Of a stretch of 64,000 nucleotides of DNA, positions 1,170 to 25,434 are shown piece by piece (positions within the stretch are counted from its first letter, which is position 1; every line of letters starts with the position of its first letter). The stretch is from an uncultured Candidatus Saccharibacteria bacterium. Its GTDB lineage: Bacteria; Patescibacteriota; Minisyncoccia; Phycocordibacterales; UBA9973. Location: NCBI GenBank assembly GCA_964468315.1, contig CAYXTA010000001.1, positions 64,277 to 128,276 of the forward strand. Reading direction: 5' to 3'. Below the pieces are notes generated by a model. That model was given only the letters and a program-made list of their open reading frames with translations. It did not search any database and was not told the origin of the DNA. The translations under genes and the position numbers were made by a program.

Positions 1170-3971
1170 ATGCATAAAAAAAATATTACTACAAACAAAA
1201 AACATTTTATTTCTAGATCAATGCTTTTTATTTGCATGATCTTTATTTTTATTAGTGTTGTTTTTATTTTTAGTTCTAATTATTCTAAATTAAAATTAAT
1301 AAATATTAAATATCATTTAATAACCTCCTCCGGTATTTTGGTTGAAAAGTTTCTTTCTTTTAATAAAGATTTTTACTTAGATGATAAAATTGATGTTTCA
1401 AAATATACGAATACTCTACCAGTACTTCTGTATCACGGAATAAGTGAAGATAATAGTGATTATACTATTTCTAAAAAAGAATTTAGAGATCAAATGGTCA
1501 TGCTCAAAAAAGCAGGTTTCAATACTATTGATGTCGATACTTTTGTTCTTTTTATGAATGGTAAAATAAAATTACCTAAAAAATCATTTTTACTTACTTT
1601 TGATGATGGACGTAAAGATAGTTTCTATGGGGCTGATCCTATACTCTCTGAGCTTGGTTTTAAGGCTTTGATTTTTATTGCCCCTGGTCAATCATTAACA
1701 AAGTCTTCTTTTGATTCTAAATATTATTTAAATATTCAAGAAATTAAAAACATGGTTGAAACCAATAGGTGGGAAATAGGATCACACGCTATGCAAAATT
1801 TTGGTGGTTTTATTGATATTAATAAAAATGGTGAAAAAGGTAACTTTTTAAGTAATCGTATGTGGCTTTATGACTTTAATAGATTAGAAACAAAAGGTGA
1901 ATATATAAAAAGATTACAATATGAATTTTCTGAATCAAAAAAAGAAATATCTAATATAACACACAAAGAAAATATACTTTTTTCTTATCCTTTCGGTGAT
2001 GATGGTTATCAAAGTATAAACGAAAAATCCGCTATTCCTACTATTAGAAACATGATTTCAAAATATTATCCTTATGCTTTTAAGCAAGTACTTAGACCTA
2101 ATAATGGATTTGCTGCAAATAGCCCATATGATAATTCATATCTTTTAAAGCGTATAGAAATTAAGAAAAATACATTAAAAGAAAAATTATTAGAAGATTT
2201 AGAAAATAGTACAGATTTAATATTAAAAGAAGAAATTTTTGATTCAAAAAAAATGTTTAATTTGTTTACTCGTTGGCATACTATTTGGGGTAAAGATCCG
2301 GTCTATGAGAAAAAAGAAATGGTAATGAGATTAAGTAAAGAAAAACCAAGTAGCATGATAATGCTTGATGGAACTAGAAGTTGGTCTAATTATCAATTCA
2401 ACGTTTTAGTAAATAATGCACAAAAAGACGATATAATGCTTTACGCAAGACTTACTGATTCTAGAACTTACGGTGTTAGATGTTTATGGTCTAATAAATT
2501 TGTAACAATAGAAGAATTGTCCAATGTTTCAAATGAAGAAAAAAATAAATTTCCTAGAGTAAATAATTTGGATAATAATATTGATTTAAATTTAGGCATA
2601 GCAGTAAAAGACAATATTGCTGGTTGTTATGAAAATGGAAATTTAGTTGCAGCTATGGAATTAGTTGAAACTCCTAAAATAGGTGGTATCGGTATGGAAT
2701 TTTGGACAAATAAAAAAGAAAATTCATTTTTGAATATCAAATCATATTCTTTTTCTTTACCTAGAATAAATAAAGATGATGTAATTTTTTTGAATAAATT
2801 TATTACGAAATCTTTAGTTCAAGAAAAAGATCCTTTTTATTTAAAAAGCCTAATGAAGTCTTTTGAGTTACCACCTAGATATGCTACGGGTGAGTCTTTA
2901 ATAAATGATGACCCACAGTTTTTTATTGAACAAAAATATGGTTATATAGATTCTGTTTTCTCAACTTCTTTGGGTGTTTTTACTACTTCAATAAAATTTC
3001 TTTCAAAAGATTCCGGAGCTATAATTCTTTGGCCAACATTACCTGCTAAAAATGGAGAAGAATATATAATTGAATCTAGGTTTGTGTCTAATGTACCTTC
3101 AGTTTTAAAAGTAAAATTTACAAGATTAAACGGAAGTGTTTTTTGGCAAACTCTAAAAAGTTTTCCTATTTCTAATGAAGAAAAATCTTACCAAGTTTCA
3201 TTTAGGGTTCCTGAAACAGCTCATAGTTTTAATGTTTATCATATGATTGAATCTCCTGGTGAAATAACAATATTTTCTCCACGTATTTACCCATTAAGTA
3301 CTGGTGATTTAGACAAACCAATTGTTAGTCTAGTTTTTGATGATGGAAAGAAGACTTTCAAAGAAAATGTATTACCAATCTTATATAAAGAAAAAATACC
3401 AGCGACTGTTGCTATTATTACAAGTCACACAGCTTTTCCTAATTATATGAATCCAAAAGATTTATATGATTTATCGAAATTAGGTTTTGAAATATCAGCA
3501 CACACTAGAACCCATACAGATTTAAAGAGTGGTTTTTCAGAAGAATTTCTTGTAAAAGAAATAATAGGATCTTGGTTTGATTTATATGATTTAGGTTTTA
3601 ATGTAGATACTTTTGTATATCCATATGGAAATTACACAGAACAATCAAAAAAAATTAGTTCTACTCGTTTCTTGGGAGCTCGTGGAGTTGAAAGAGGTTT
3701 CAATGATAGAAATACAGATCTATATGCTTTAAAAGATCAGCTTATAGAAAAAACAACAACTGAAAATGAAATAAAAAATTGGTTGAGTATAGCAAAAAAA
3801 GAAAATTCTTGGCTTATTTTAGAATTTCATGATGTTTTTGCTGATGACAATTTTCTTGATTCTGAGGCAATTACAACTAAACAGTTGTCAATGATTATTA
3901 AAAATATTAAAGATAGCGGTGTGGAGATAGTTACTTTACATGATGGTATTATGAAATTGCGTGAACGTTAA
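1170..3971 (+). CDS. Large membrane-anchored polysaccharide deacetylase with two NodB-homology domains (PgaB/IcaB-like).
   Basis: N-terminal TM helix. Domain 1 has LLYHGISEDN...TFDDGRKDSF...GSHAM. Domain 2 has SLVFDDGKKTF...SAHTRTHTDL...ILEFHDV (DD and HxxxH metal motifs). It starts 3 nt after the GT2 stop, so it is probably in an operon with it. Confidence 0.75.
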   Translation: MHKKNITTNKKHFISRSMLFICMIFIFISVVFIFSSNYSKLKLINIKYHLITSSGILVEKFLSFNKDFYLDDKIDVSKYTNTLPVLLYHGISEDNSDYTISKKEFRDQMVMLKKAGFNTIDVDTFVLFMNGKIKLPKKSFLLTFDDGRKDSFYGADPILSELGFKALIFIAPGQSLTKSSFDSKYYLNIQEIKNMVETNRWEIGSHAMQNFGGFIDINKNGEKGNFLSNRMWLYDFNRLETKGEYIKRLQYEFSESKKEISNITHKENILFSYPFGDDGYQSINEKSAIPTIRNMISKYYPYAFKQVLRPNNGFAANSPYDNSYLLKRIEIKKNTLKEKLLEDLENSTDLILKEEIFDSKKMFNLFTRWHTIWGKDPVYEKKEMVMRLSKEKPSSMIMLDGTRSWSNYQFNVLVNNAQKDDIMLYARLTDSRTYGVRCLWSNKFVTIEELSNVSNEEKNKFPRVNNLDNNIDLNLGIAVKDNIAGCYENGNLVAAMELVETPKIGGIGMEFWTNKKENSFLNIKSYSFSLPRINKDDVIFLNKFITKSLVQEKDPFYLKSLMKSFELPPRYATGESLINDDPQFFIEQKYGYIDSVFSTSLGVFTTSIKFLSKDSGAIILWPTLPAKNGEEYIIESRFVSNVPSVLKVKFTRLNGSVFWQTLKSFPISNEEKSYQVSFRVPETAHSFNVYHMIESPGEITIFSPRIYPLSTGDLDKPIVSLVFDDGKKTFKENVLPILYKEKIPATVAIITSHTAFPNYMNPKDLYDLSKLGFEISAHTRTHTDLKSGFSEEFLVKEIIGSWFDLYDLGFNVDTFVYPYGNYTEQSKKISSTRFLGARGVERGFNDRNTDLYALKDQLIEKTTTENEIKNWLSIAKKENSWLILEFHDVFADDNFLDSEAITTKQLSMIIKNIKDSGVEIVTLHDGIMKLRER

Positions 3972-5711: not shown

Positions 5712-6236
5712 ATGAAATTAGACCCAATCCTGATGCATATAGATGATGAAGCTTTATACAATGAGTTCTTTGCTCCGCTTTTTCGGTATTTATTTTTTCG
5801 AACGAAAGATCATAATATAGCAAATGATTTGACCCAAACCAGCTTTTTAAAGTTTCTTAGTCAGGAGAAAAAAGCTCTTGAAAAAGAATACGCAGTGAAA
5901 CTACTATTTACTATTGCGAGAAATACACTTATTGATTATCGACGAGTTGAAACTAAAAGAATTCATGAAAATGTTGATGATATAGAAAATATTCGAAGTG
6001 AGATATTAAATCCGGAAGAAGATGCAATTTTAGAAGAAGATAAGAAATTTGTCCGGGAAATACTGCACCAACTTGATGATCTCGAAGGAGAAGTTTTCTC
6101 AATGAGGTTGTCGGGAGAAATAGATTACACTACAATAGCAGCTACTTTGGGAATTAGTTCTGTAAATGCCCGTACAATATATTCACGGGCATTAAAAAAA
6201 GTCGGAGCAGAACTTAAAAAAAGTAATCGTTTTTAA
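5712..6236 (+). CDS. RNA polymerase sigma-70 factor, ECF subfamily.
   Basis: Region-2-like LTQTSFLKFL...TIARNTLIDYRR and a region-4 HTH (DYTTIAATLGISSVNARTIYSRALKKV). About 174 aa. Confidence 0.8.
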   Translation: MKLDPILMHIDDEALYNEFFAPLFRYLFFRTKDHNIANDLTQTSFLKFLSQEKKALEKEYAVKLLFTIARNTLIDYRRVETKRIHENVDDIENIRSEILNPEEDAILEEDKKFVREILHQLDDLEGEVFSMRLSGEIDYTTIAATLGISSVNARTIYSRALKKVGAELKKSNRF

Positions 6237-6741: not shown

Positions 6742-7462
6742 CAAAATAGTTGCTGGCGCATTTGCACTTAGCATTTTAGTTTCCCCGTTTGCTGGTTTTG
6801 CAGCTGAAACAAAAGTAAAAGGAGGATCTTTTTGCAATAAAATAGATGCCGTGACTGAAAAAATAAATACTCGCTTAGTAACCCACTTAGATAAGTTTGC
6901 TGTAAGGAAAAATACAAGAATCGCCAACATATCCAAGAGACGTGTCACTAGAGATGAAAACCGTGCTGACCATAGAGAAATTAAAGATATAAAAGTTGAT
7001 ACACGTATTAGTAATTTGACAGCAAAAGCTGATACAGAAGCTAAAAAATTAGCAGTTGTGTCTTTTGAGCAATCAGTAAATTCTGCTATATCACAAAGAC
7101 GTGCTACTGTGGATGAAGCAGTCCTAAAATTTAGAAATGGGGTAGACAACCTCATTACTACTAAATTTAATTCAATCGACAATAGTGCTGCAGTATTCAA
7201 GCAATCAGTAAATGAAGCGATTGTGGCAGCAAAGAATTCATGTGCAAATGGCACTGATAGCGAAATAGTTCGTACTACCATGAGAAATAGTATCAAAGTT
7301 GCTCAGGATAAGTTTAAAACAAATAGAATCGATACTTCGATAGAAGCAGACATAAATGCTCTTGTAGAAATAAAAAGACAATCGATAGATGGAGCGGTAG
7401 TAAAATTTAAAGCTGATATGGAGAAAGCAAAAGCAGATCTTAAAATTGCATTTGGGGCTTAA
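6725..7462 (+). CDS. Secreted alpha-helical protein with a signal peptide.
   Basis: Signal peptide MKTQYNKIVAGAFALSILVSPFAGFAAE. It overlaps the anti-sigma ORF by 17 nt, so it is probably in the same operon. The antisense ORF 6691..7296 is judged spurious. Confidence 0.5.
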   Translation: MKTQYNKIVAGAFALSILVSPFAGFAAETKVKGGSFCNKIDAVTEKINTRLVTHLDKFAVRKNTRIANISKRRVTRDENRADHREIKDIKVDTRISNLTAKADTEAKKLAVVSFEQSVNSAISQRRATVDEAVLKFRNGVDNLITTKFNSIDNSAAVFKQSVNEAIVAAKNSCANGTDSEIVRTTMRNSIKVAQDKFKTNRIDTSIEADINALVEIKRQSIDGAVVKFKADMEKAKADLKIAFGA

Positions 7463-9155: not shown

Positions 9156-9719
9156 ATGTTAAGTATAAAAATACCAGATTCAAAAAGAAAAAAAGCACTT
9201 ATATTAATAGATCTCCAGCCCATATTTTTAAACAATAAAAATTCTTATGTTTTGAAAAACATGGAAAATCTTTTTAAAAATGAAGAATATTTTATGTATA
9301 TTAAAGCTACTTTTTCTGCTCCTAAGGGCTCTATTTGGGATAAACAGCTCGGATGGATTGTTGAAGAAAATAAAGATACAGATGTATTTCCAGCGAGGAT
9401 TTTAGAATTATTAAAAGATAAAAACTGCATCAATGTTAAAAAAGAAACAAAATCAATATTCAAAGGAACACCAGATATTTTACCGATCTTGAAAGAAAAT
9501 GGAATAGAAGAGATTAATATTATCGGCGTTGATACTAATGATTGTATTCTTGCTACAGCATATGAATCTTTCGACTATGGATTCTTTACATATATCATCG
9601 AAGAATGTGTACAATCCAGCGAAGGGGAGGAAATACATGAAGCAGGATTAAAAGTTTTAAGGCATGTGAATCTGACCAATAATTCTTGTATCGAGAAGAT
9701 TGGGTTTAAGGAAATATGA
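9156..9719 (+). CDS. Isochorismatase-family cysteine hydrolase (nicotinamidase PncA-like).
   Basis: ALILIDLQPIF (Asp) and IIGVDTNDCILATA (catalytic Cys) are typical of the family. The stop overlaps the next start (ATGA). Confidence 0.7.
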   Translation: MLSIKIPDSKRKKALILIDLQPIFLNNKNSYVLKNMENLFKNEEYFMYIKATFSAPKGSIWDKQLGWIVEENKDTDVFPARILELLKDKNCINVKKETKSIFKGTPDILPILKENGIEEINIIGVDTNDCILATAYESFDYGFFTYIIEECVQSSEGEEIHEAGLKVLRHVNLTNNSCIEKIGFKEI

Positions 9720-10060
9720 ACATGCAAACATATAATTTTTTATTTGTAATAGTTTTATCTACTGTTGTACTTACACGACTTTGGCTTTTATTGAAACCAA
9801 TATCTAGTCCTAGATTAAAAGGATTCAAGCTTCATCATTATATGTATGGTTTGATTATTGTTGGCATTTCTATTTTTCTTTCAAATATTATTTTATATGG
9901 AATTGGTTTTGGTTTAATAGTTGATGAATTACCACTTTTTTTAAGGTATAAAAATAATCATTTTCACTGGAAAGAATATAATTCAATTTATAGTAGATTG
10001 GGTGTTATTATTTGCCTTGTTTTGGTGTATATATTTAGAAAATATCTTATTTTATATTGA
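9716..10060 (+). CDS. Small membrane protein (3 TM).
   Basis: Translationally coupled to the isochorismatase-like gene. Hydrophobic. Confidence 0.4.
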   Translation: MNMQTYNFLFVIVLSTVVLTRLWLLLKPISSPRLKGFKLHHYMYGLIIVGISIFLSNIILYGIGFGLIVDELPLFLRYKNNHFHWKEYNSIYSRLGVIICLVLVYIFRKYLILY

Positions 10061-11185: not shown

Positions 11186-11315
11186 TTATTTTCTTGTTAT
11201 TGTTTATAATCATTAGAGTTACCTCTAATTTACATATTATACTATAAATAAAAAATAGGGGAAAGTAAGCTTAGAAACTATATATTTGCCACATTTGGTA
11301 ATACTTCAAATGGCT

Positions 11316-11350
11316 CGAGCATTGACTTTTCACTTTTAATATGATATTAC
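11316..11350 (+). promoter_or_regulatory. Repeated promoter/operator-like box (copy 1 of 3): CATTGACTTTTCACTTTTAATATGATATTAC.
   Basis: Near-identical boxes at 12090-12125 and 13762-13797. TTGACT matches a sigma70 -35 hexamer, but the spacing to any -10 is ambiguous. Confidence 0.4.
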
Positions 11351-11385
11351 TTCATTAAGTAATCGCTCTTTTACATTCGTATTTG

Positions 11386-11426
11386 ATTGGTTTTCAGAGG
11401 AGATGCTGTCTCTTGTGGAAACCAAT
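11386..11426 (+). ncRNA. Conserved two-stem hairpin in the 5' leader (copy A) of the NADAR-HTH gene. A cis-regulatory RNA or an operator.
   Basis: ATTGGTTTTC CAGAGGAGATGCTGTCTCTTGTG GAAACCAAT. A 10-bp outer stem and a 6-bp inner stem. It ends 13 nt before the ATG and there is no SD. Confidence 0.5.
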
Positions 11427-11439
11427 TGAAACTAAAATA

Positions 11440-12012
11440 ATGGAAAATAAGAAAATTGACTCATTTAGCGAAGAGAATAGATTTCTCTCCAACTTCTGGC
11501 CCGTAGTCATTTGCTACGAGAATAGAATGTATCCAACAGTTGAACACGCGTATCAGGCTCAAAAGACAACTCAAGAGGAGAAACGACAAAAAGTTGCTGC
11601 TCTTATAACACCAGGCGAGGCTAAAAAATTTGGAGAAAATTTAAAGCGTCTTGGAAAAATACGTCCTGATTGGAGTGATGAATTGCGAATACAGCATATG
11701 ACAGCTTTGGTTGAAAGAAAGTTTTCTTTGAGTAATCTGGAATTGTCTCAAAAACTACTTGCAACTGGGGATATTGAACTTATTGAGGGTAATACCTGGG
11801 ACGATACCTTTTTCGGTGTTTGTAATGGGGAAGGAGAAAACCACTTGGGTAAAATCATTATGGCTACCAGAACAAAATTGAAGGCTGAAGTGCAAAAGAT
11901 AATGGATGCTTTAGTTAAGCATAATGGCAAGAGGCACGATGCTGCAAAGGATCTAAACATTGCGGAAAGGACACTGAGACTGCGCGAACAGGTATTTGGT
12001 ATTTTATATTGA
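11440..12012 (+). CDS. NADAR (YbiA/DUF1768) domain protein with a C-terminal Fis-type HTH.
   Basis: NADAR motifs: FLSNFWP, YPTVEHAYQAQK, LLATGDIELIEGNTWDDTFFGV. C-terminus: GKRHDAAKDLNIAERTLRLREQVFG, which resembles the Fis/NtrC HTH_8. I prefer the ATG at 11440 over the track start at 11383, which lies inside the hairpin. Confidence 0.7.
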   Translation: MENKKIDSFSEENRFLSNFWPVVICYENRMYPTVEHAYQAQKTTQEEKRQKVAALITPGEAKKFGENLKRLGKIRPDWSDELRIQHMTALVERKFSLSNLELSQKLLATGDIELIEGNTWDDTFFGVCNGEGENHLGKIIMATRTKLKAEVQKIMDALVKHNGKRHDAAKDLNIAERTLRLREQVFGILY

Positions 12013-12021
12013 GAAGCAATT

Positions 12022-12058
12022 AGGAGGTTAGAATATAATGTTCTAACCTCCTTTTTAT
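12022..12058 (+). terminator. Intrinsic terminator.
   Basis: Perfect 12-bp stem AGGAGGTTAGAA/TTCTAACCTCCT, followed by TTTTATTT. Confidence 0.6.
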
Positions 12059-12154
12059 TTACCCAAAATAACCATTCGAACATCTTCCCACGTTTAAAGT
12101 ATTGACTTTTAACTTTTAATATAGTACTTTAAGAAAAGTATTTGGTCTTTAACA

Positions 12155-12205
12155 TTGCATGTTTGATTGGTTACCAGAGAAGATTCTGTCTTTTGCGGTA
12201 ACCAA
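12155..12205 (+). ncRNA. Conserved two-stem hairpin (copy B) in the 5' leader of a membrane-protein gene.
   Basis: ATTGGTTACC AGAGAAGATTCTGTCTTTTGC GGTAACCAAT. The same architecture as copy A with compensatory substitutions. Confidence 0.5.
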
Positions 12206-12219
12206 TTAAAACTTAATAT

Positions 12220-12736
12220 TATGCTACAATTTGATTCACTTCTTCTAAAAAAATTCCAATCTTTTTCAGATTGGGTTTCAGTTACTTTTGGATTTAGTAA
12301 CTTCAAGGTTGCTAAATTGTTAATGATTTTATGTGTGATTGATACAGCCTGGGAGATTTATTTAAAAATCACCTACTGTAATATTGACCCAAAATCTTCT
12401 ATACCGGTGTTTAGTATCTTTTTTAGTTTACTATTCATTGTACTCTATGATTACACCATAAGGATTTGTGAGAAATTATCGGTTCTAAACTCAGGTACAA
12501 TCAATCCAGCTTACGTAATGTTACAACCTTGGCGATTCATGAAAATCGTTTTTATTTTCATGGGTATCACCCTATTAACAATAGATTTAACGGCGCATAT
12601 ATTTCTTACTCCATCTCCGTCTTTGAATCATGAGAAGGACCATATACATCACCTTACTGATATTTGTTACTTACTTTGGGATATATATAATCACAGCGTG
12701 TATTGTCTATTTAGTTTCTTGTTATACAAAACCTAA
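12220..12736 (+). CDS. Hypothetical membrane protein (about 4 TM).
   Basis: ATG at 12220, 14 nt after the hairpin. Hydrophobic segments. The track start at 12167 would overlap the structured element. Confidence 0.45.
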
Positions 12737-12842
12737 ACAGGAAAGTAAAATCAAGAAATGGATAAAAAGTATATCTTTTGTTTCCCAAGGTGTTTTGTCT
12801 CTTAAAGCACAAAAAATCTAACTTCTGAAGTCATAATCAATT

Positions 12843-12873
12843 AACCCACTCAATTTTGAGTGGGTTTTTTTAT
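12843..12873 (+). terminator. Intrinsic terminator.
   Basis: AACCCACTCAATTTTGAGTGGGTT followed by TTTTTTT. Confidence 0.6.
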
Positions 12874-12960
12874 TTACCCAAAATCACTATTCGAACATCA
12901 TCCCACGTTCGGAGCAAAATTTTATCATTTTTGAGTCTTTTCTGTTAAAATATATTTATT

Positions 12961-13740
12961 ATGCGAATCGAGAAAAAAGTTTGGCCGGAATATTTCCAAC
13001 AAATTGTAGATAATAAAAAGACCTTTGAATTAAGGTTAAATGATTTTGATATATGTGAGGGAGATACTCTTGTTCTTAATGAGTGGGATCCAGCTACCAA
13101 GGACTTCACAGGAAGAACACTTGAAAAAAAAGTAGGTTATGTTGGTAAGTGGAAAATAGATGATCTTACAAAGTTTTTACCAAGGCAAGACATTGAGGAT
13201 AAAGGCCTTCAAGTTATTTCTATGAAAGACCAAAAATCCCCAATGTCAAAACTAATAATAATCCGTGGAAACTCTGGCTCAGGAAAGAGCACTATCGCAA
13301 AAGAACTGAGAGCAAGATTAGGCAAAGAAAAAACCGCCCTCATTGAGCAGGATTATTTACGTCGCCACGTACTTGGAGAGATAGGCAAAAGTGGCGATGA
13401 TAATGTTGAATTGATAGAATTGACTACAAGATTTGCTTTAGAGAAAAACTATTTAACTATAGTTGATGGCATAATGCCGTCAGAATATTATGGTGCTATG
13501 TTAAAAAGGCTGAATGATATAAATCCTAAAAATACACATATTTTTTACTTAGATATATCCTTAGAAGAAACACTTAAAAGACATACTACCAAACCAAATC
13601 GTAATGATTTTGGTGAACCAGAAATACGAGAATGGTACAGAAATAAAGATACATTAAAACTAGAAAACGAGACTGTAATTGACGAGAAATCAACTTTAGA
13701 AGAAAGTATAAAATTTATATTGGAGGTTATTAAATATTAG
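12961..13740 (+). CDS. Fusion protein: an N-terminal ASCH/PUA-like domain and a C-terminal P-loop kinase (AAA_33/zeta-like).
   Basis: N-terminus KKTFELRLNDFDICEGDTLVLNEWDP...GRTLEKKVGYV (small beta-barrel ASCH/DUF3850-like). C-terminus Walker A IIIRGNSGSGKSTIAKEL and Walker B-like YLTIVDG. Confidence 0.55.
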   Translation: MRIEKKVWPEYFQQIVDNKKTFELRLNDFDICEGDTLVLNEWDPATKDFTGRTLEKKVGYVGKWKIDDLTKFLPRQDIEDKGLQVISMKDQKSPMSKLIIIRGNSGSGKSTIAKELRARLGKEKTALIEQDYLRRHVLGEIGKSGDDNVELIELTTRFALEKNYLTIVDGIMPSEYYGAMLKRLNDINPKNTHIFYLDISLEETLKRHTTKPNRNDFGEPEIREWYRNKDTLKLENETVIDEKSTLEESIKFILEVIKY

Positions 13741-13913
13741 GGAATACTTCAAATAGCTCGAGCATTGACTTTTATATTTTAATATAGTACTTTAAGAAAA
13801 GTATTCGGTCTTTAACATCCTTTGTTTACCTATTGAATTACTCACTTTGCTTTTCAATTTTGGAAGTCAATGTGGGTAATTCAATAATCTATAAACTTTA
13901 AATAATAAAAAAA

Positions 13914-14387
13914 ATGACAAAAGTTGTAAAACTCTTCGGACTTGATGATCCAAGTGTAGATAATAATATTAAAATAATTGCTTTAACAGGAAAATGTATC
14001 GAATGGGCGATGGGTTTTCTGGGAGGGGATGATGATCCACTTACAGGTCTTATTATAGGAGATAAAGATTTCGATGACACGATTCTTCAAAAATTAAACA
14101 TATTTGAGACTGAGGAAGAAAAAATTAAAACAATCCTTCAAGATTTAAATAAACCGGATTCTGAATTTGAAGGAAAACTTATGAGCCTGGGTGAACTTAG
14201 TGGAAGAGAAGAGGATACCCATATTGAGATAATTGCTCTAGCAGCAAAAAATCTGGAATGGGAAATTGGTGTTCTCGCAGGAGAAGATGAACCAATCACA
14301 GGACTTATCCTCGGAGAAAAGGAATTTGTTAAAGCAACTCTTCGAAAATTGAATAAATTTGATTTGCTTTTTAAGGAGCAGAAATAA
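13914..14387 (+). CDS. Hypothetical protein made of two tandem homologous ~65-aa repeats.
   Basis: IKIIALTGKCIEWAMGFLGGDDDPLTGLIIGDKDFDDTILQKLN is repeated as IEIIALAAKNLEWEIGVLAGEDEPITGLILGEKEFVKATLRKLN. Confidence 0.45.
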   Translation: MTKVVKLFGLDDPSVDNNIKIIALTGKCIEWAMGFLGGDDDPLTGLIIGDKDFDDTILQKLNIFETEEEKIKTILQDLNKPDSEFEGKLMSLGELSGREEDTHIEIIALAAKNLEWEIGVLAGEDEPITGLILGEKEFVKATLRKLNKFDLLFKEQK

Positions 14388-17053: not shown

Positions 17054-17080
17054 CCCCGATCTAACAAGATCGGGGTTTTT
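17054..17080 (+). terminator. Intrinsic terminator.
   Basis: CCCCGATCTAACAAGATCGGGG followed by TTTTT. Confidence 0.65.
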
Positions 17081-17173
17081 ATTTACCAAAAATCGTAATT
17101 TTAACATAATCCTACGTTTGAAGTCTTTAAAATATACCTTAATAGAAGTTCAAACTTGTGATATTATTGGTGT

Positions 17174-17655
17174 ATGAAAAAGTCATTAACTTTGTGTATG
17201 ATTCTTAAAGATAACCAGATACTCCTAGGTATGAAAAAAAGAGGATTTGGTGTTGGTAGATGGAATGGGTTTGGTGGAAAAGTTGATGAAGGTGAAACAA
17301 TAGAACAAGGAGCTATTCGTGAATTAAAAGAGGAGACTGGAATAGATGCTGTAAATATTAAAAAAGTTGGTATTTTGGATTTTTCATTTCAAAATGATAA
17401 TAAAATTTTAGAAGTTAATGTTTTTAAAGTTATAGATTTTATAGGAGAACCTACAGAAAGTGAAGAGATGAAACCACAATGGTTTTTTTTGATAAAATAC
17501 CATTTAGTCAAATGTGGACAGATGATATTCAATGGTTTCCATTTCTATTAAATAATAAATTATTTAGAGGAGAATTTTTATTTGATAGACCTTCTGATTC
17601 TGAATATTCTGCAAAAATAATTACTCAAAAACTAAATGAAGTTTCAAATTTTTAA
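17174..17655 (+). pseudogene. MutT/NUDT1(MTH1)-like Nudix hydrolase interrupted by a frameshift in a T8 homopolymer (17483-17490).
   Basis: Nudix box GGKVDEGETIEQGAIRELKEETGI in frame 1 ending at 17551. The adjacent frame continues DKIPFSQMWTDDIQWFPFLLNNKLFRGEFLF...QKLNEVSNF to 17655. From memory this matches the MTH1 C-terminus ([27 protein letters not shown]). Confidence 0.55.
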
Positions 17656-17691
17656 TATTTCCATTCGAATATTTCCCTAAGTTTTTCTGTC

Positions 17692-19114: not shown

Positions 19115-20398
19115 ATGAATAAAAATACTCAATTAATTTGGCGTACAGAAGTACGTAAAGTAGAAAGTCTTAAAACATGGAGTAAAAATCCTCGTAAATT
19201 AACAAAATCAGCATTTAAAACCTTAGTGGAAAGGATTGAGCAACGCGGTTTTCACGCAGTACTTGTAATTGATACAGATGACACGATTCTTTCAGGTAAT
19301 CAGAGAAAAAATGCACTTATACATTTAGGAATTACTGAAGTAACAGTGTTGGTTCCAAACCGTAAACTTACAGAAGATGAAAGAAAAAAGATTGCTTTAG
19401 AATCTAATTTAAATGATGGGGAATGGGATTTTTCAAAATTAAAATCTTTTAACATGGATCTGCTGAGTGATATAGGTTTCCCTGATTCAGATCTTTCAAA
19501 TATCTGGTCGGAAAATCTTGAAGCTGAAGATGATAACTTTGATGAAAAACTTGAACTGTCAAAAATTAAAGTTCCAAAAACTAAACTTGGAGATCTAATT
19601 ATTATGGGAAATCATAGATTAATTTGTGGAGATTCAACGGATCCTAAAGTTCTTAAAAAGTTATTCGGAAACGAGAAAGCATCTATGATATATTCTGATC
19701 CGATTTACAATATTAAAATAAATTATAGTAAAGGGATTGGAGGTAAACAAAAATATGGTGGAAATGTAAATGACAATCGTAGCTTTGAAGAATACAAAGA
19801 ATTTCTAAATAAAAGTTTAATTAGTGCACTTGCTGTATCAAAAGATGACCTTCATGTTTTTTACTGGAATGATCAGACAGGGATAGGAATTGTACAAGAT
19901 TTATATCGTGAACTTGGTATTGAAAACAAGCGAGTATGTTTGTGGATTAAAAATGGACAGAATCCTGTGCCGAGTGTGGCGTTTAATAAATGCTATGAAC
20001 CATGCATATATGGTGTAAAAGGACGACCATATATTTCTTCAAATTTACAAAACCTCAATGAGGTCATGAATAAAGAAATGACAACTGGTAATAGTCTTAT
20101 GGAAGAAACACTTGATCATCTTGATATTTGGACAGTGAAAAGATTGTCAGGTAAAGATTACGAACATGCTACAAGTAAACCTCCAAAACTTCACGAAAAA
20201 GCTATTCGTCGTTGCACTAAGCCTGGTGATATTATTCTAGATTCATTTTCAGGTTCTTCCAGCACACTTATTAGTGCTGAACAATTAAAACGTCGAGTAT
20301 ATGCTGTCGAGCTAGAAGAAGTATTTTGTGATTTGGCGATTCGCAGGTACGAAAAATTAACAGGTAATAAAGCAAAAATAATCCATGAAAAAAAATAA
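19115..20398 (+). CDS. ParB-like nuclease domain fused to a DNA N6-adenine/N4-cytosine methyltransferase (phage/plasmid type).
   Basis: N-terminal ParB/Srx-like region (GFHAVLVIDTDDTILSGNQRKNA). MTase motif IV SDPIYNI (DPPY-like) lies before motif I ILDSFSGSSST, the beta-class order. Confidence 0.7.
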   Translation: MNKNTQLIWRTEVRKVESLKTWSKNPRKLTKSAFKTLVERIEQRGFHAVLVIDTDDTILSGNQRKNALIHLGITEVTVLVPNRKLTEDERKKIALESNLNDGEWDFSKLKSFNMDLLSDIGFPDSDLSNIWSENLEAEDDNFDEKLELSKIKVPKTKLGDLIIMGNHRLICGDSTDPKVLKKLFGNEKASMIYSDPIYNIKINYSKGIGGKQKYGGNVNDNRSFEEYKEFLNKSLISALAVSKDDLHVFYWNDQTGIGIVQDLYRELGIENKRVCLWIKNGQNPVPSVAFNKCYEPCIYGVKGRPYISSNLQNLNEVMNKEMTTGNSLMEETLDHLDIWTVKRLSGKDYEHATSKPPKLHEKAIRRCTKPGDIILDSFSGSSSTLISAEQLKRRVYAVELEEVFCDLAIRRYEKLTGNKAKIIHEKK

Positions 20399-20792
20399 AA
20401 AGAAAGATGAGTTTTTAGAACAACTCAAAAAAGTTCCAATTGTTTTAGTTGCATGTGAAAAATCTGCACTCTCTCGCAATACTGTATATCGATGGCGAAA
20501 GGAAGATAATGAATTTTCTGTTGCAATGGATCAAGCCCTTAAAGAGGGCGAAGAATTAGTAAATGATATGACTGAAAGTCAGCTCTTAAGTATGATCAAA
20601 GATAAAGAATGGTCAGCTATTTCTTTTTGGCTTCGACATAGGAATCCAAAGTTTAGAGACAAGGTTGAACTCGTCGGAAATATTAACCATACCACTCGTG
20701 AATTAACTTCTGAAGACGAAGAACTACTTAAGGAAAGTCTTCGTCTTGCATTACCAACTAATCATAAACAAAATGATGAACCTAAATCCTAA
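20385..20792 (+). CDS. Putative terminase small subunit / HTH DNA-binding protein.
   Basis: HTH-like ALSRNTVYRWRKEDNEFSVAMDQALKEG. It sits immediately upstream of the terminase large subunit gene and overlaps it. Confidence 0.45.
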   Translation: MKKNKKKDEFLEQLKKVPIVLVACEKSALSRNTVYRWRKEDNEFSVAMDQALKEGEELVNDMTESQLLSMIKDKEWSAISFWLRHRNPKFRDKVELVGNINHTTRELTSEDEELLKESLRLALPTNHKQNDEPKS

Positions 20793-22230
20793 AGAAGAAG
20801 AGATTATCAAACATATGATTAAAGATCGTACCTTTCGATTAGCATTAGTTAAAAAAAGTCACTATTGGTTTTTCTATTATTACTTCGGACAAAAATATGC
20901 AAAGTATCCAACAGCAGATTTTCAACGTGAAATATTTAATATCACAGAAAATCCTGAATTAAAAAATATTGTAATCACAGCATTTCGTGGATCAGCTAAA
21001 TCTACGATTATTACCTTGTCTTATGTGATTTGGTCGATAGTCGGAATTAAACAAAAAAAGTTTCCAATAATTCTTGGTCGAACACAATTAAACACGCAAC
21101 CAAATCTTAATGCTATTAAGAAAGAATTAGAAGAAAACGATTTATTCAGAAAAGATTTTGGTCCATTTAAGGAAGAGGTTGATACTAATGGAACCACACA
21201 ATCTATTATTCTTCCTCAATACAATGCTCAGATATCAACACGTTCAATAGGGCAAAATATTAGAGGTATTAAACATTTGCAATACAGACCGGATTTAATT
21301 ATCGCTGACGACATAGAGGACTCTGATTCAATAAAAAGTCAGAAAAATAGAGATGAGTTATTTGATTGGCTAACTGGTGATGTCATTCCAGCAGGAGATC
21401 GTGATACTCAATTAATATTCATTGGTACACCACTTCATAATGATTCAATTCTAATGCGTTTAAAAGCATTATTTCAAAATGGAGATCCTAAAAATATTTA
21501 CCGTGAATTCCCAATTGTAGATGAAAATAATATTCCTTTATGGCTTGGAAAATTTAAGACACAAGAAGACATCGATAATGAGAGAAAAAAGTGTTTTAGT
21601 GAAATTATGTGGCAACGAGAGTATTTACTCAAGATTTTAGATAGTGAAGATCAAATAATTAAGCGAGAACATATTCATTATTACGAAGAATTACTAACTG
21701 GACATTGTCGTTTTTCTGCTACCGCTATTGATCCAGCACGTTCTCTTAAATCAACTGCTGATTATACTGCTATTGTTTCAGGAAAAATGTTTGAATATGA
21801 AAAGAATAGGAAATTATATATTATGCCTAATCCAATAAATGAACGTCTTACTACAGACCAACAAATACAAAAAGTAAAAAATATTTCGAAAGGATTAAAT
21901 AATAACGAAAGTTATTCCCGTGTATATGTTGAAGATGTTGGATTTCAAGGAGTCATTACTGATTTGTTAAAAAGTGAAGGAATTCCCGCAAAACCATTTC
22001 CTGTCCGAGGTTGGAGCAAAGAAGATCGTCTTATGTCCGTATCTTCACTTATTGAACTTGGGAGAGTGGTCTTTCCAAAGAAAGGAGCTGAAAAATTACT
22101 TGAACAAATTATTGGATTTGGGAAAGAATCACATGATGATCTGGTCGATGCTTGTACAATGTTAATATTTCAAGCTTTTGAAGATTCTAAAAAACCAAGA
22201 CCAAGAATTCAGAATATTTTTATTTATTAA
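20773..22230 (+). CDS. Phage terminase large subunit.
   Basis: Walker A-like FRGSAKSTIIT. Walker B/DE LIIADDIED. C-terminal RNaseH-like nuclease region (IDPARSLKSTADYTAIVSG...VEDVGFQG...HDDLVDA). The ATG at 20773 is preferred over the track start at 20746. Confidence 0.7.
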   Translation: MMNLNPKEEEIIKHMIKDRTFRLALVKKSHYWFFYYYFGQKYAKYPTADFQREIFNITENPELKNIVITAFRGSAKSTIITLSYVIWSIVGIKQKKFPIILGRTQLNTQPNLNAIKKELEENDLFRKDFGPFKEEVDTNGTTQSIILPQYNAQISTRSIGQNIRGIKHLQYRPDLIIADDIEDSDSIKSQKNRDELFDWLTGDVIPAGDRDTQLIFIGTPLHNDSILMRLKALFQNGDPKNIYREFPIVDENNIPLWLGKFKTQEDIDNERKKCFSEIMWQREYLLKILDSEDQIIKREHIHYYEELLTGHCRFSATAIDPARSLKSTADYTAIVSGKMFEYEKNRKLYIMPNPINERLTTDQQIQKVKNISKGLNNNESYSRVYVEDVGFQGVITDLLKSEGIPAKPFPVRGWSKEDRLMSVSSLIELGRVVFPKKGAEKLLEQIIGFGKESHDDLVDACTMLIFQAFEDSKKPRPRIQNIFIY

Positions 22231-22289: not shown

Positions 22290-22841
22290 TTAGTCTAGAT
22301 CTACTACTATTATTCCTCCTCCAAATAAACTTCCATTGTATTGGAATTGGAGACCTTTTGTGTTATTAGGTATTTCAAATCCAACCCAACCCGTACGCTT
22401 ACTATTTGCAATAACAGCACCATCAAGAGATTTGTTCATATTCTCTATAATTTTATCAGTAACACTTATTTGATAACTATTACCATCTGCGTCTCGTAAA
22501 AACATTTGTCCTAATGTTGTTATATATTGTTGTGTTGATCCGGTATTTTGAATAGTTATATTTAAATTAATATATTTATTACCAGTTGAAGGTTTTGCAA
22601 ATTCTGAACCTTGTGAAAATGAAACATTATTTACTGTGACTATTGAATCACCAAGTTGTATTTTATCTCCAACTTTGTAGGTTTGATTTTGTGATTGGAC
22701 TGTTGTTGTATCAGTGGTATTATTACTTCCAACTTTTTTAGGAGTAGAACTACCAGAACTAGCTATTATTAAAATAATAATTATCACAAGAATCCAAAAC
22801 CAAACTTTTTTATAAAATTTCTTTTTAGGAGTATTCTCCAT
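22290..22841 (-). CDS. Secreted/lipoprotein-like DUF4352-type beta-sandwich protein.
   Basis: N-terminal TM/signal. Ser/Thr-rich linker. A beta-rich domain (GDKIQLGDSIVTVNNVSF...YINLNITIQNTG...WVGFEIP) typical of the DUF4352 family, which is often next to phage genes. Confidence 0.5.
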   Translation of the reverse strand: MENTPKKKFYKKVWFWILVIIIILIIASSGSSTPKKVGSNNTTDTTTVQSQNQTYKVGDKIQLGDSIVTVNNVSFSQGSEFAKPSTGNKYINLNITIQNTGSTQQYITTLGQMFLRDADGNSYQISVTDKIIENMNKSLDGAVIANSKRTGWVGFEIPNNTKGLQFQYNGSLFGGGIIVVDLD

Positions 22842-23259: not shown

Positions 23260-23916
23260 ATGATAACTGAAAAGATTACATCAGACCAAGAGAAACAATT
23301 AACACGTTTCCTTGAAGACGCTATGCGTAAACTTGACCTATCAAAAGAGCAGGCTCAGGAAATTATTAAAAACGGTGGCAAAATGCAAGCCGAAGTGCGA
23401 GATGTATTGAATAAGTACTCAATAGCAGACAAACGCTTTACATGTGTAAACACCTTTGAAATTGTTGTACCTGCTAACTACAAGCATGAAACACGTTTGG
23501 ATTCATTTTTTAAAGAAAACAAGAAAAAGTTTTATTACTACAATAATGCTATTACTGACAAAAATTTTGCTAAAGCTACAACAAAATTGGAGCCAGGTAG
23601 AAAGTTTAAAGTGAAAGTATTCCAAATCAACAACATAATAACATTAACAGATTGTACAGATTTTTTAAAAAGTCAAAACGCAGTTTTAACTGGTGCCCAA
23701 GGAGCTTCGCTTGTTTACGAACAAAAGAAAGAGGAGTTAGTAAAAGGTAAATGGGCTATTTCTTTTGACGAAAAAGATTCGTTATGGAAAGATTCTAATG
23801 GTTACTTCAGGGTGCCTTATGTGTTCGCTCGCACAGATGGAGACTTCGAGTTCCTCCTTAGTCACTTTGGGATTGCCTGGGTTGAAGGTCGCTGTCTCTT
23901 GTGCTTCTGTGACTAA
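23260..23916 (+). CDS. Hypothetical protein.
   Basis: 218-aa ORF followed by a perfect 32-bp palindromic terminator. Confidence 0.45.
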   Translation: MITEKITSDQEKQLTRFLEDAMRKLDLSKEQAQEIIKNGGKMQAEVRDVLNKYSIADKRFTCVNTFEIVVPANYKHETRLDSFFKENKKKFYYYNNAITDKNFAKATTKLEPGRKFKVKVFQINNIITLTDCTDFLKSQNAVLTGAQGASLVYEQKKEELVKGKWAISFDEKDSLWKDSNGYFRVPYVFARTDGDFEFLLSHFGIAWVEGRCLLCFCD

Positions 23917-23971: not shown

Positions 23972-24009
23972 GTCCCATTTACTTTATATAAAGTAAATGG
24001 GACTTTTTT
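23972..24009 (+). terminator. Intrinsic terminator built on a perfect 32-bp palindrome.
   Basis: GTCCCATTTACTTTATATAAAGTAAATGGGAC followed by TTTTTT. Confidence 0.7.
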
Positions 24010-24090: not shown

Positions 24091-25434
24091 ATGGAGAAGA
24101 ATGCAATAGGGAAGATACACAATTCAATATCTGTATCAGAAGTTCGGATCAAGTACTGCCTATACGCCAGAAAATCGACAGAGCAAGATGAGAAACAAGC
24201 GCTATCAATAGATTCACAGGTAAAAGAAATGCTTCAAATTGCGGAGCGTGAAAATCTTAATGTCGTTGAAGTAAAAAGAGAATCGCATTCAGCAAAAGAT
24301 TCAGGAGAACGGCCAGTCTTTAAGGAAATATTGGAAGATCTACGATCAGAGAAATTCAATGGATTGCTCACATGGGCGCCGGACCGATTAAGTAGAAATG
24401 CAGGTGATCTTGGCTCGCTGGTAGATCTTATGGATCAGAAGAAATTAATCCATATACAAACGTATGGACAGACATTCAAGAATTCACCGAATGAAAAATT
24501 TCTCTTGATGATCTTGTGTTCTCAGGCAAAACTAGAGAATGACAATAAAAGTATTAATGTTAAAAGGGGATTACGGGCAAGAGTAGAGATGGGGTTATGG
24601 CCATGCCGTCCACCAACAGGATACTTCAAAGAGAAAAGAACAGATAGAAAATGTCAGTCAATATTCGATCCAGATCGAGCGCCGATCATAAAGCAGATAT
24701 TTGAAAAAGTAGGATATGATGGCTGGAGCGGAAGAAAGATATATCACTGGCTCAAGCATGAGATTAAATTCAAGACTGAATTTAATATGTTTCTGAGTTT
24801 GGGTAATCTCTATCGCATACTCGAAAATTCTTTCTATTACGGACGCTTTGAATTTCCGAAAGGATCAGGGAACTGGTACAACGGAGTGCATGAACCGATA
24901 ATCTCTAAAGAATTGTTTAATATCGTCCAAACACAGATCAAGAGCCAGATCTTAGAACCACGGTCACAGCAGAAAGAATTTGCCTTTACCAAGATCATGG
25001 CATGCGGATTATGTGGATCAGGAATAACGGCTGATGAAAAGTTCAAGAGATTAAAGAATGGCGGTGTGAATCGCCATGTCTATTACAAATGTACTAGGAT
25101 TAGAGATTCAAAATGTGAGTGCGGATTTATAAATGAAGAAGACCTGATTAAGCAATTACAGATTCTCATTGATGATCTTGAAATGCAGACGGTGCCAATG
25201 AGAGAGAAGATATCGGCTGAAGTGCAGCGATTCAAGAAATTCGAACAGATGCTCTTAGGTACAAAGACACCTATTACTGTAAAAGATATAGATATACGAA
25301 ACTATGCAAAGTTTATATTGCTAGAGGGGACCGTGGATGAGAAGAGGGAATTCTTGAGGTGTTTGAGGAGTGGGATTGTGTTGGAGAATAAGAAAATATC
25401 ACTTATTAAGCCTTCTCAATATATTTTGAAATAA
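24091..25434 (+). CDS. Large serine recombinase (serine integrase).
   Basis: N-terminal resolvase catalytic motif YARKSTEQDEKQALSIDSQ (Ser nucleophile). Recombinase domain. Zn-ribbon Cys cluster (CGLCGSG...YYKCTR...C). C-terminal coiled coil. Confidence 0.8.
   Translation: MEKNAIGKIHNSISVSEVRIKYCLYARKSTEQDEKQALSIDSQVKEMLQIAERENLNVVEVKRESHSAKDSGERPVFKEILEDLRSEKFNGLLTWAPDRLSRNAGDLGSLVDLMDQKKLIHIQTYGQTFKNSPNEKFLLMILCSQAKLENDNKSINVKRGLRARVEMGLWPCRPPTGYFKEKRTDRKCQSIFDPDRAPIIKQIFEKVGYDGWSGRKIYHWLKHEIKFKTEFNMFLSLGNLYRILENSFYYGRFEFPKGSGNWYNGVHEPIISKELFNIVQTQIKSQILEPRSQQKEFAFTKIMACGLCGSGITADEKFKRLKNGGVNRHVYYKCTRIRDSKCECGFINEEDLIKQLQILIDDLEMQTVPMREKISAEVQRFKKFEQMLLGTKTPITVKDIDIRNYAKFILLEGTVDEKREFLRCLRSGIVLENKKISLIKPSQYILK

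Follow-up and report, generated by a model that had tools for sequence, protein, structure and literature searches.

The 64,000-nucleotide (nt) stretch of contig CAYXTA010000001.1 analysed here (the window) belongs to a bacterial chromosome of about 30% G+C on which an ATP synthase operon, GatB and Obg are encoded; proteins grouping with its ATP synthase beta subunit bear the name Candidatus Nomurabacteria (Patescibacteria, uncultivated), and the source contig measures 158,632 nt. Two hairpins precede start codons in a genomic island, a stretch at roughly 5-25 kb whose genes are small and accessory: hairpin A, whose 41-nt core (11386-11426, + strand) has the sequence ATTGGTTTTCAGAGGAGATGCTGTCTCTTGTGGAAACCAAT, and hairpin B, with its core at 12166-12206 (+ strand). 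A first reading of the letters alone (the sequence-only reading) had presented them as a two-copy structured leader element. Its coordinates for copy A were correct; the sequence it wrote for that copy contains one surplus C compared with ATTGGTTTTCAGAGGAGATGCTGTCTCTTGTGGAAACCAAT, and copy B, which it placed at 12155-12205, is displaced from its true position. The similarity between A and B spans about 120 nt, including a promoter-like box (BLAST E 2.6e-21), and a third unit, C, is found at 13765-13913, so that two copies was an undercount. The box, ATTGACTTTTnACTTTTAATAT, occurs three times in the window, the third time at 13764, against 0.04 occurrences expected. Hairpins A and B are the 3′ parts of a larger repeated unit, made of a promoter and a 5′-leader hairpin, and not isolated elements.

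The unit is composed of: (i) a sigma70-like promoter, TTGACT, 17 nt and TAnnnN, often with an extended TGn; (ii) a leader of about 28 nt containing a conserved TCTTTnAnAT motif; (iii) a very stable hairpin of 17-23 bp with the base AUUG...(C/U)AAU, and (iv) an A-rich spacer of 10-32 nt, devoid of Shine-Dalgarno (SD) sequence, that leads to the ATG. The parts of the three units are as follows.

11293..11321, + strand: box D1 of unit A (..AATACTTCAAATGGCTCGAGCA), a repeat family common to unit C
11322..11350, + strand: predicted promoter of unit A, with -35 TTGACT at 11322-11327, a 17-nt spacer, and TGa + TATTAC at 11342-11350
11346..11363, + strand: small palindrome ATTACTT-catt-AAGTAAT, covering the -10 hexamer and the predicted start
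11365..11376, + strand: early-leader motif GCTCTTTTACAT, family consensus YTCTTTnAnAT
11382..11430, + strand: leader hairpin A, core 11386-11426, the stem being lengthened by U-A, G.U and U.G pairs
12102..12130, + strand: predicted promoter of unit B, with -35 TTGACT at 12102-12107, a 17-nt spacer, and -10 TACTTT at 12125-12130
12162..12211, + strand: leader hairpin B, core 12166-12206
13736..13793, + strand: D1 box and predicted promoter of unit C, with -35 TTGACT at 13765-13770 and -10 TACTTT at 13788-13793
13832..13885, + strand: leader hairpin C, ATTGAATTACTCAC...GTGGGTAATTCAAT, unrelated in sequence to A/B, in the same position and with an AUUG...CAAU base

Transcription of unit A is predicted to start near 11357, about 28 nt before hairpin A. 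In most members of the family the terminal bases of D1, GAGCA, adjoin the -35 hexamer. Unit C shares its upstream box, promoter and early leader with A and B (its promoter region is 93% identical to that of unit B over 58 nt) and differs from them in the hairpin. Other genes of related organisms are preceded by ordinary TTGACA-17-TAnnnT promoters; hence, the sigma70-type reading of the units fits the lineage. A second promoter using TnAnAT as -10 element, which would start transcription at the hairpin base, was judged unlikely since neither an acceptable -35 element nor a TG extension accompanies it.

Translation signals around the hairpins were also considered. The sequence-only reading rightly stated that the genes downstream of A and B have no SD sequence, a feature that is unremarkable in this genome, where GGAG or GAGG is found at -18 to -4 in only 2 of the 73 window genes; the organism does not use SD sequences. 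The 20 nt preceding the start codons of the same 73 genes are 47% A and 83% A+T. No fixed motif was found in the spacer before the start codon, AAACT being enriched merely 1.8-fold. The SD-like AGGAG in the 5′ inner arm of hairpin A was discarded as a ribosome-binding site, as it is about 35 nt from the AUG, is missing in copy B and in the other hairpin types, and belongs to a genome without SD use. A leader peptide or N-terminal extension was rejected as well: from one copy to the next, neither the in-frame TTG open reading frames (ORFs; 11383 and 12167) nor the short ATG ORF within hairpin A is conserved.

Hairpins A and B have the same architecture, an outer stem of 10-11 bp, a small internal loop and an inner stem of 7 bp, hairpin B lacking the A-U pair at position 11. 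Compared with 200 shuffles each, the cores fold with -21.6 kcal/mol (A, z -6.7) and -18.8 kcal/mol (B, z -7.0), values not reached by any of the shuffles, and hairpin C folds with -23.3 kcal/mol (13832-13886, z -7.9). When the 77 nt upstream of the 73 window gene starts were ordered by folding energy, units A, B and C took ranks 1, 2 and 4; ranks 3 and 5 correspond to terminators of preceding genes and rank 6 to another upstream hairpin. The folding of the three leaders exceeds chance. As the sequence-only reading had noticed, A and B end 13 and 14 nt, respectively, before the ATG of different genes (ATG 11440 and 12221); hairpin C ends 28 nt before its ATG (13914). The same reading had announced three compensatory substitutions between A and B. 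Two of them, T:A versus A:T at outer position 8 and G:C versus A:T at pair 3 of the inner stem, alter both sides; at outer position 9, T.G versus C:G, only one side is altered, converting a wobble into a Watson-Crick pair.

Hairpin family in related genomes and its level of action

Further members were obtained from exact-protein look-ups of the homologues of two genes of the accessory stretch, the NADAR gene with a helix-turn-helix tail (NADAR-HTH) that follows hairpin A and a kinase gene, in Logan, ENA and JGI assemblies. Fourteen leader hairpins were collected in six contig sets, those of the window and of the relatives listed below. Contigs encoding an identical NADAR protein (L001-L007) carry elements that are 100% identical and were thus uninformative.

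L128 (NADAR 96% identical): A/B-type hairpins at 225-265 and 2468-2508; other type at 3263-3302
L131/L132 (NADAR 59% identical): A/B-type hairpins at 9462-9502 and 9946-9990; other type at 11530-11573
L165 (NADAR 49% identical): A/B-like hairpin at 7345-7386; 73-nt hairpin of other type at 9005-8933, - strand
L169: at the end of its contig (5-56), a hairpin of other type
L180: near 5808-5852, ATTGGTT...AACCAAT enclosing a new inner stem

Of the fourteen hairpins, seven belong to the A/B type and one more, that of L180 with its new inner stem, is weakly A/B-like; the other six represent six different types. The order of promoter, motif, AUUG-based hairpin, A-rich spacer and ATG is readable for thirteen, the L169 hairpin being at the end of its contig, and the promoter region, judged by its sequence, conforms to the sigma70 consensus TTGAC[T/A], 16-17 nt, (TGn)TAnnnT-like, in all thirteen. 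The helix base AUUG...(C/U)AAU is common to the fourteen hairpins despite their differing inner parts. The YTCTTTnAnAT motif is likewise present in units of other hairpin types, including those of L165 and L180. The small palindromes over the -10 element occur as four sequence types across the units of the window, L128 and L131, and are absent or unclear in the L165 and L180 units. The first unit of L131 directly abuts a tRNA-Asn(GTT) gene (9325-9400), the GAGCA of the unit being the 3′ end of the tRNA; a tRNA 3′ end could therefore be the place from which units spread, or the one at which they insert.

Searching about 278 kb of related loci with a covariance model (R1), which scores hairpin A with 81.7 bits and hairpin B with 76.7 bits, gave no additional strong copy, only the weak match in L180. 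The comparison with Rfam, which that reading had named as a check, gave no family matching the hairpins, either over the whole window at gathering thresholds or over 11250-13950 at E<=10. Scans of genome, metagenome and viral contig collections with the promoter box, the hairpin pattern and box D2 (described below) yielded matches that were judged to be due to chance, none of them extending beyond the pattern; many were ordinary TTGAC...TGnTAnnnT promoters or coding sequence.

Conservation of the pairing was evaluated on an alignment of the seven A/B-type copies, with 500 shuffles and slid alignments as controls. The paired cells amount to 94.8% versus 89.2% in shuffles, and the covariation score is 0.238 versus 0.133, neither value being reached in any of the 500 shuffles; in the slid controls pairing was 54.5% or less in all cases. 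Four pairs are altered on both sides, so that the covariation claimed by the sequence-only reading held when more copies were included. One pair is G-C, G.U or A-U depending on the copy, another is C-G, U.G or U-A, and the loop-closing pair is A-U or C-G. Outer position 8 stands apart: it is unpaired (T/T or C/A) in five of the seven copies, and the T:A of A and the A:T of B, which do differ on both sides, hence look like two separate mismatch repairs.

The nature of the oppositions that are not Watson-Crick pairs indicates the level at which the structure is maintained. In the A/B alignment there are 24 G.U against 8 other oppositions, one G.U pair (alignment columns 21-39) is invariant in the seven copies, and G.U accounts for 44 of the 252 base pairs over 12 hairpins. 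The sense RNA is clearly more stable than the antisense RNA in 10 of these 12 hairpins, by 2.7-12.9 kcal/mol, one hairpin being tied and one reversed. With short flanks, the sense and antisense values are -23.9 and -11.1 kcal/mol for hairpin A, -22.1 and -15.3 kcal/mol for hairpin B, and -24.9 and -17.3 kcal/mol for hairpin C. This strand bias argues against a double-stranded site, which has no reason for asymmetry. The evidence favours reading the element as an RNA-level structure rather than as a double-stranded DNA operator, in agreement with the preference of the sequence-only reading. Single-stranded DNA of the same strand may be an alternative that also fits the bias.

It is accordingly very unlikely that the palindrome acts as double-stranded DNA, be it as an operator for NADAR-HTH or another regulator, or as an att-like site of about 41 bp for a serine recombinase. 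In favour of a DNA site, the 41 bp of the imperfect dyad correspond to the length of the att sites used by serine recombinases, and a gene for a large enzyme of this kind is present at 24091-25434. The half-sites ATTGGTT/AACCAAT do not vary among the seven A/B-type copies, except for one broken pair in L165, and three of these copies (window A, L128 and L131_2) precede NADAR-HTH genes. Against this stand the G.U excess and the sense-strand advantage given above, and the fact that the homology breakpoints of the cassettes (see below) are at the promoter box and not at the hairpin. For an operator, it would be unusual both that the half-sites are separated by 34 bp from centre to centre and that the site occupies about +29 to +69 of the predicted transcript. 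Moreover, NADAR-HTH orthologues in five of the eight groups looked up (L129, L164, L165, L168 and L169) have plain promoters without the palindrome, and therefore the hairpin is not tied to the NADAR-HTH gene; it precedes at least four other genes. The NADAR-HTH operator that the sequence-only reading had put forward as its alternative is thus disfavoured.

The same reading had offered a riboswitch or an RNA thermometer, and a transcription attenuator may be added to them. A position in the 5′ leader close to the start codon, conserved with covariation, is what such elements would show, yet we regard all three as extremely unlikely. Against a riboswitch speak the simplicity of the element, which consists of one hairpin and lacks a conserved unpaired pocket or junction, its variable loops (UGCUG, UUCUG, UUUUG or a 9-nt loop), the unrelated hairpins of sister units and the absence of a match in Rfam. 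As thermometers, hairpins of -18 to -35 kcal/mol would be too stable to melt at physiological temperatures; besides, a distance of 10-32 nt separates the stem from the AUG, and the leaders offer no SD sequence that could be masked. As for attenuators or terminators, the stem leads not into a U tract but into A-rich 3′ flanks (UGAAACUAAAAUA and similar), and the terminator scan did not pick out the hairpins.

Cassettes and their apparent exchange

Each unit is followed by a single gene, and the arrangement of promoter, leader, gene, terminator and a second repeated box, D2, can be described as a cassette. The remaining parts of the cassettes in the window are these.

11440..12012, + strand: NADAR gene with C-terminal Fis-type HTH tail, cargo of cassette A (Pfam NADAR 2.5e-20; PHROG 1017)
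12022..12052, + strand: intrinsic terminator of cassette A, a 14-bp stem followed by a T run
12052..12101, + strand: box D2 after the terminator (TTTTTATTTACCCAAAAT..ATTCGAACATCTTCCCACGTT), reaching the next promoter
12221..12736, + strand: hydrophobic 171-aa ORF, cargo of cassette B, with no Pfam or PHROG match
12843-12866: canonical terminator of cassette B, from the terminator scan
13914..14387, + strand: 157-aa ORF, cargo of cassette C, with no Pfam or PHROG match

The genes after A and B had been described in the sequence-only reading as a NADAR-HTH gene and a membrane-protein gene, the second corresponding to the hydrophobic ORF; the HTH_8 match of the NADAR tail (5e-4) is weak and falls under the Pfam cut-off. 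D2 has the consensus ATTCGAACATCATCCCACGTTCGGAGCA, holds the inverted repeat CGAAC-N10-GTTCG and is placed directly 3′ of terminators and 5′ of promoters. Its copies in the window are at 12052-12094, 12867-12909 and 17076-17118, and also at about 17650-17680. In the relatives it was found in L128 (about 2360-2400, 3134-3186 and 3874-3925), L129 (about 2790-2830) and L131 (about 10610, 11398-11452 and 12081-12134), and L180 has a variant. Two identities considered for D2 were rejected. A promoter for a sigma factor of the extracytoplasmic function (ECF) type (GAAC...CGTT) would have the wrong spacing, 9 nt, and the likeness to a decayed 3′ end of tRNA-Asn (TTCGA..TCCC..GAGCA) is weak, with no T-stem pairing and no match to the tRNA model.

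Comparison with the relatives points to the cassette as a unit of exchange. Positions 11317-12112 of the window are 94.4% identical to L128 2399-3197 over 799 nt (BLAST). The block begins at GAGCA|TTGAC of unit A and stops within the -35 box of the next unit, so that the shared stretch is the entire NADAR cassette, namely promoter, hairpin, gene, terminator and D2. Outside the block, L128 and the window have in common other units and D2 boxes only, and the flanking genes differ. Whole single-gene cassettes thus appear to have passed from genome to genome through recombination in the conserved promoter boxes.

The units are moreover mosaic. Unit A is 86.8% identical to L131_1, which is located upstream of a different gene, and only 75.2% identical to L131_2, upstream of a NADAR orthologue whose coding sequence is 65% identical. 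For the closest strain, identity amounts to 86.4% in the unit and 97.4% in the coding sequence; of the 16 differences between the units, half are located in the 41-nt hairpin, whose version in that strain is almost that of L131_1. The hairpin of L128_0 is similar to the one of window A. These identities imply that units and hairpin alleles have been exchanged between positions and between genomes. The mosaic distribution (L128_1 like L131_1, L128_0 like window A) and the concentration of differences in the hairpin next to an almost unchanged coding sequence, which fits replacement of a patch, would also be expected if the hairpin had no function of its own and hitch-hiked in the promoter module, its pairing being kept not by selection on RNA but by mutational events in which one palindrome arm is copied onto the other, through intra-strand template switching or gene conversion from unit to unit. 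We hold this explanation to be decidedly unlikely: template switching generates perfect Watson-Crick arms and leaves unexplained both the excess of G.U on the sense strand and the invariant G.U pair, and at least seven unrelated inner sequences keep a long stable hairpin at the same position of the leader.

A system of comparable organization exists in T4-type phages, where the promoter-early stem-loop (PeSL) cassettes, repeated intergenic modules of a sigma70-like promoter and a stem-loop, precede ORFans (PMC2839356; PMC4122927). The PeSL stem-loops may overlap the -10 box or follow it closely, and the modules mediate modular shuffling in plastic regions (PMC2839356; PMC4122927). The units described here resemble them in combining a strong sigma70-like promoter with a stem-loop 5′ of small accessory genes, in the small palindrome over the -10 box, which fits the PeSL geometry, and in the homology breakpoints located in the motif (window 11317-12112 versus L128). 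They differ from PeSL in several respects: the host is a chromosomal island of Patescibacteria and not a T4-like phage; the large hairpin is in the 5′ untranslated region (UTR), at about +29 to +69, with no G/C tract or U run; a separate canonical terminator precedes each promoter, whereas the PeSL stem-loop acts as terminator or attenuator; and the units have no SD at their 3′ end and no sequence similarity to PeSL. The element is a promoter/stem-loop cassette of an already known kind, here in a bacterium of the Candidate Phyla Radiation (CPR). By analogy, PeSL would be its closest functional counterpart, the units working like PeSL in genome plasticity without being members of that family.

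Integrons with their attC sites resemble the present system in that each cassette holds a single gene and is delimited by imperfect palindromes folding in single-stranded form. They were rejected as an explanation given that the hairpins found here precede their genes, the cassettes come with promoters and terminators of their own, the breakpoints are at the promoter box and not at the hairpin, and the R''/R' cores (RYYYAAC...GTTRRRY) are absent in the required order. No integron integrase was found among the ORFs scanned with Pfam, the large serine recombinase being the sole recombinase found. REP/BIME palindromes, which are numerous, dispersed and mostly 3′ of genes, were discarded too: the window has three leader hairpins in 64 kb, all 5′ of genes and linked to promoters.

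A more far-reaching reading, which we consider unlikely, would make the units an undescribed class of self-contained mobile expression cassettes of Patescibacteria, with site-specific insertion or exchange at GAGCA|TTGAC and the hairpin read by a dedicated factor that binds or processes RNA. If true, ultra-small bacteria would have in them an equivalent of integron cassettes that brings its own promoter.

Possible role of the leader hairpin

We propose, with moderate confidence, that the hairpin is a transcribed 5′-UTR structure of a portable promoter-leader cassette, having a structural role in stabilizing or insulating the mRNA. The transcription start, the transcription of the hairpin and its stabilizing or insulating role are inferred. 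In the model, the hairpin would act as RNA through its structure and not as a sensor. It would block 5′-to-3′ or 5′-end-dependent decay, either directly or once the AU-rich leader has been trimmed, and would lock the upstream leader into a self-contained fold. The A-rich initiation region, which lacks SD, could thereby stay single-stranded whatever cargo gene follows, and the same promoter-leader unit could thus drive unrelated cargo genes. A structural role fits the following observations: (i) inner stem and loop are variable; (ii) unrelated hairpins substitute for one another; (iii) the genes downstream are unrelated, and (iv) the boundaries of the cassettes are at the promoter boxes.

Hairpins that act in this manner are known. 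In the E. coli ompA leader, the B. subtilis aprE leader and the intercistronic RNase III sites of phage T7, 5′ stabilizer or processing hairpins work through their structure, protecting the RNA from 5′-dependent decay or being cut by RNase III, before any coding sequence. The classical stabilizers are, however, within a few nt of the 5′ end.

The closest analogue in geometry, and in geometry only, may be the extended start-associated sequences (ESAS) of Cluster K mycobacteriophages, imperfect 17-bp inverted repeats which, together with a spacer of 4-13 bp, measure about 40 bp and are located just 5′ of start codons (PMC3203893). They precede a subset of genes, are conserved in related genomes with a consensus that varies by lineage, and are suspected to have a role in translation initiation (PMC3203893). 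The arms of 18 nt, the 5-nt loop and the 13-14 nt to the ATG of the present hairpins are similar, an analogy and nothing beyond it. ESAS are tied to the 13-bp SAS motif, whereas the spacer of the units is A-rich and no SAS-like fixed motif was found in it; ESAS have not been described as part of a promoter unit, and their sequences and hosts differ.

Several points weigh against a structural role. The transcription start and the transcription of the hairpin are predictions from sequence, and the predicted start, about 28 nt 5′ of the hairpin, would not make it a classical 5′-terminal stabilizer unless the leader is trimmed. Two hairpins, L165_1 and L180_1, have no sense-strand advantage. The covariation comes from just seven A/B copies, with an effective number of 3.3, and some of the compensatory differences are swaps of hairpin alleles between units (L128_1 and L131_1 have almost the same hairpin) and hence not independent events. 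A structural role leaves the TCTTTnAnAT motif and the small -10 palindromes unexplained. Furthermore, the 7-bp outer stem AUUGGUU/AACCAAU is invariant in seven of the eight ATTGGT-type copies (in L165 one pair is broken, C/A), and the AUUG...CAAU base, common even to unrelated hairpins, hints at sequence-specific recognition.

The last two observations would be accounted for if the hairpin were a recognition or processing site for a trans-acting factor, either RNase III, which would cleave the helix of roughly two turns as it does at the intercistronic sites of phage T7, or a regulator encoded in the island that would bind the AUUGG/CCAAU base and co-regulate island genes. Such a factor is possible, though we find it rather unlikely. 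The presence of the AUUG...(C/U)AAU base in 14 of 14 hairpins would be in line with such a factor, and the invariant G.U pair could be a recognition feature. Stems of 17-23 bp are compatible with RNase III substrates, and those of the family have, in addition, a conserved small internal loop. On the other hand, the window yielded no candidate for such a protein, the loops as well as the inner stems vary freely, and the shared helix base could also be explained by common descent of the units. A structural role remains the reading we prefer.

Few of the CPR bacteria, to which Nomurabacteria belong, have been cultivated, and next to nothing has been learned about how they control expression. A portable module of promoter and 5′ leader would provide concrete parts, namely promoter, leader and terminator, and testable rules for SD-independent expression in the CPR, and it suggests that a PeSL-like logic of cassette shuffling shapes genomic islands of ultra-small bacteria too. 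With it, the candidate structured RNA motifs gain one that Rfam does not contain. A new regulatory principle would be at hand only if it turned out that a factor binds the element specifically or that cassettes are inserted by a site-specific mechanism.

Surroundings of the units

The accessory stretch in which the units are located encodes an ECF-type sigma factor, an isochorismatase, the NADAR protein, a DUF3850-kinase, a NUDIX protein, a DNA methylase, a terminase-like gene product and the large serine recombinase. The ECF-type sigma factor gene (Sigma70 regions 2 and 4; 5712-6236, + strand) marks an edge of the region, and the two ORFs without family match that follow it could be an anti-sigma pair.

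The combination of NADAR and a Fis-type HTH tail recurs in related Patescibacteria, in proteins of 184-190 aa and, in L180-L183, in longer ones of 271-282 aa (for instance L180 11019-11834 and L182 5330-6178). The HTH may direct the NADAR enzyme to DNA instead of regulating transcription. The ORF with a NUDIX domain (17174-17655) has a stop at 17551, after 125 aa, and a T run at about 17483; its profile match is incomplete (positions 8-102 of 134), and it may contain a frameshift or be a pseudogene.

Further downstream, the DNA methylase (19115-20398), the terminase large-subunit-like gene (20746-22230; PHROG 38, 1e-77) and the large serine recombinase (24091-25434) are grouped. The group has no recognizable phage structural genes and may be a decayed prophage or another integrative element. 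Near the terminase-like gene and the recombinase, between a DUF4352 gene (22290-22841) and the ORF at 23260-23916, there is a full-length LOOT RNA (Rfam RF03000; 22912-23030, - strand), which scores 90.5 bits against a gathering score of 46.4. A perfect 32-nt palindrome at 23972-24003, followed by a T run, is the terminator of the ORF 23260-23916. Its core TACTTT..AAAGTA is common to the -10 palindromes of units B and C, a link that was rejected since the palindrome acts as a terminator only; the resemblance is probably a coincidence.

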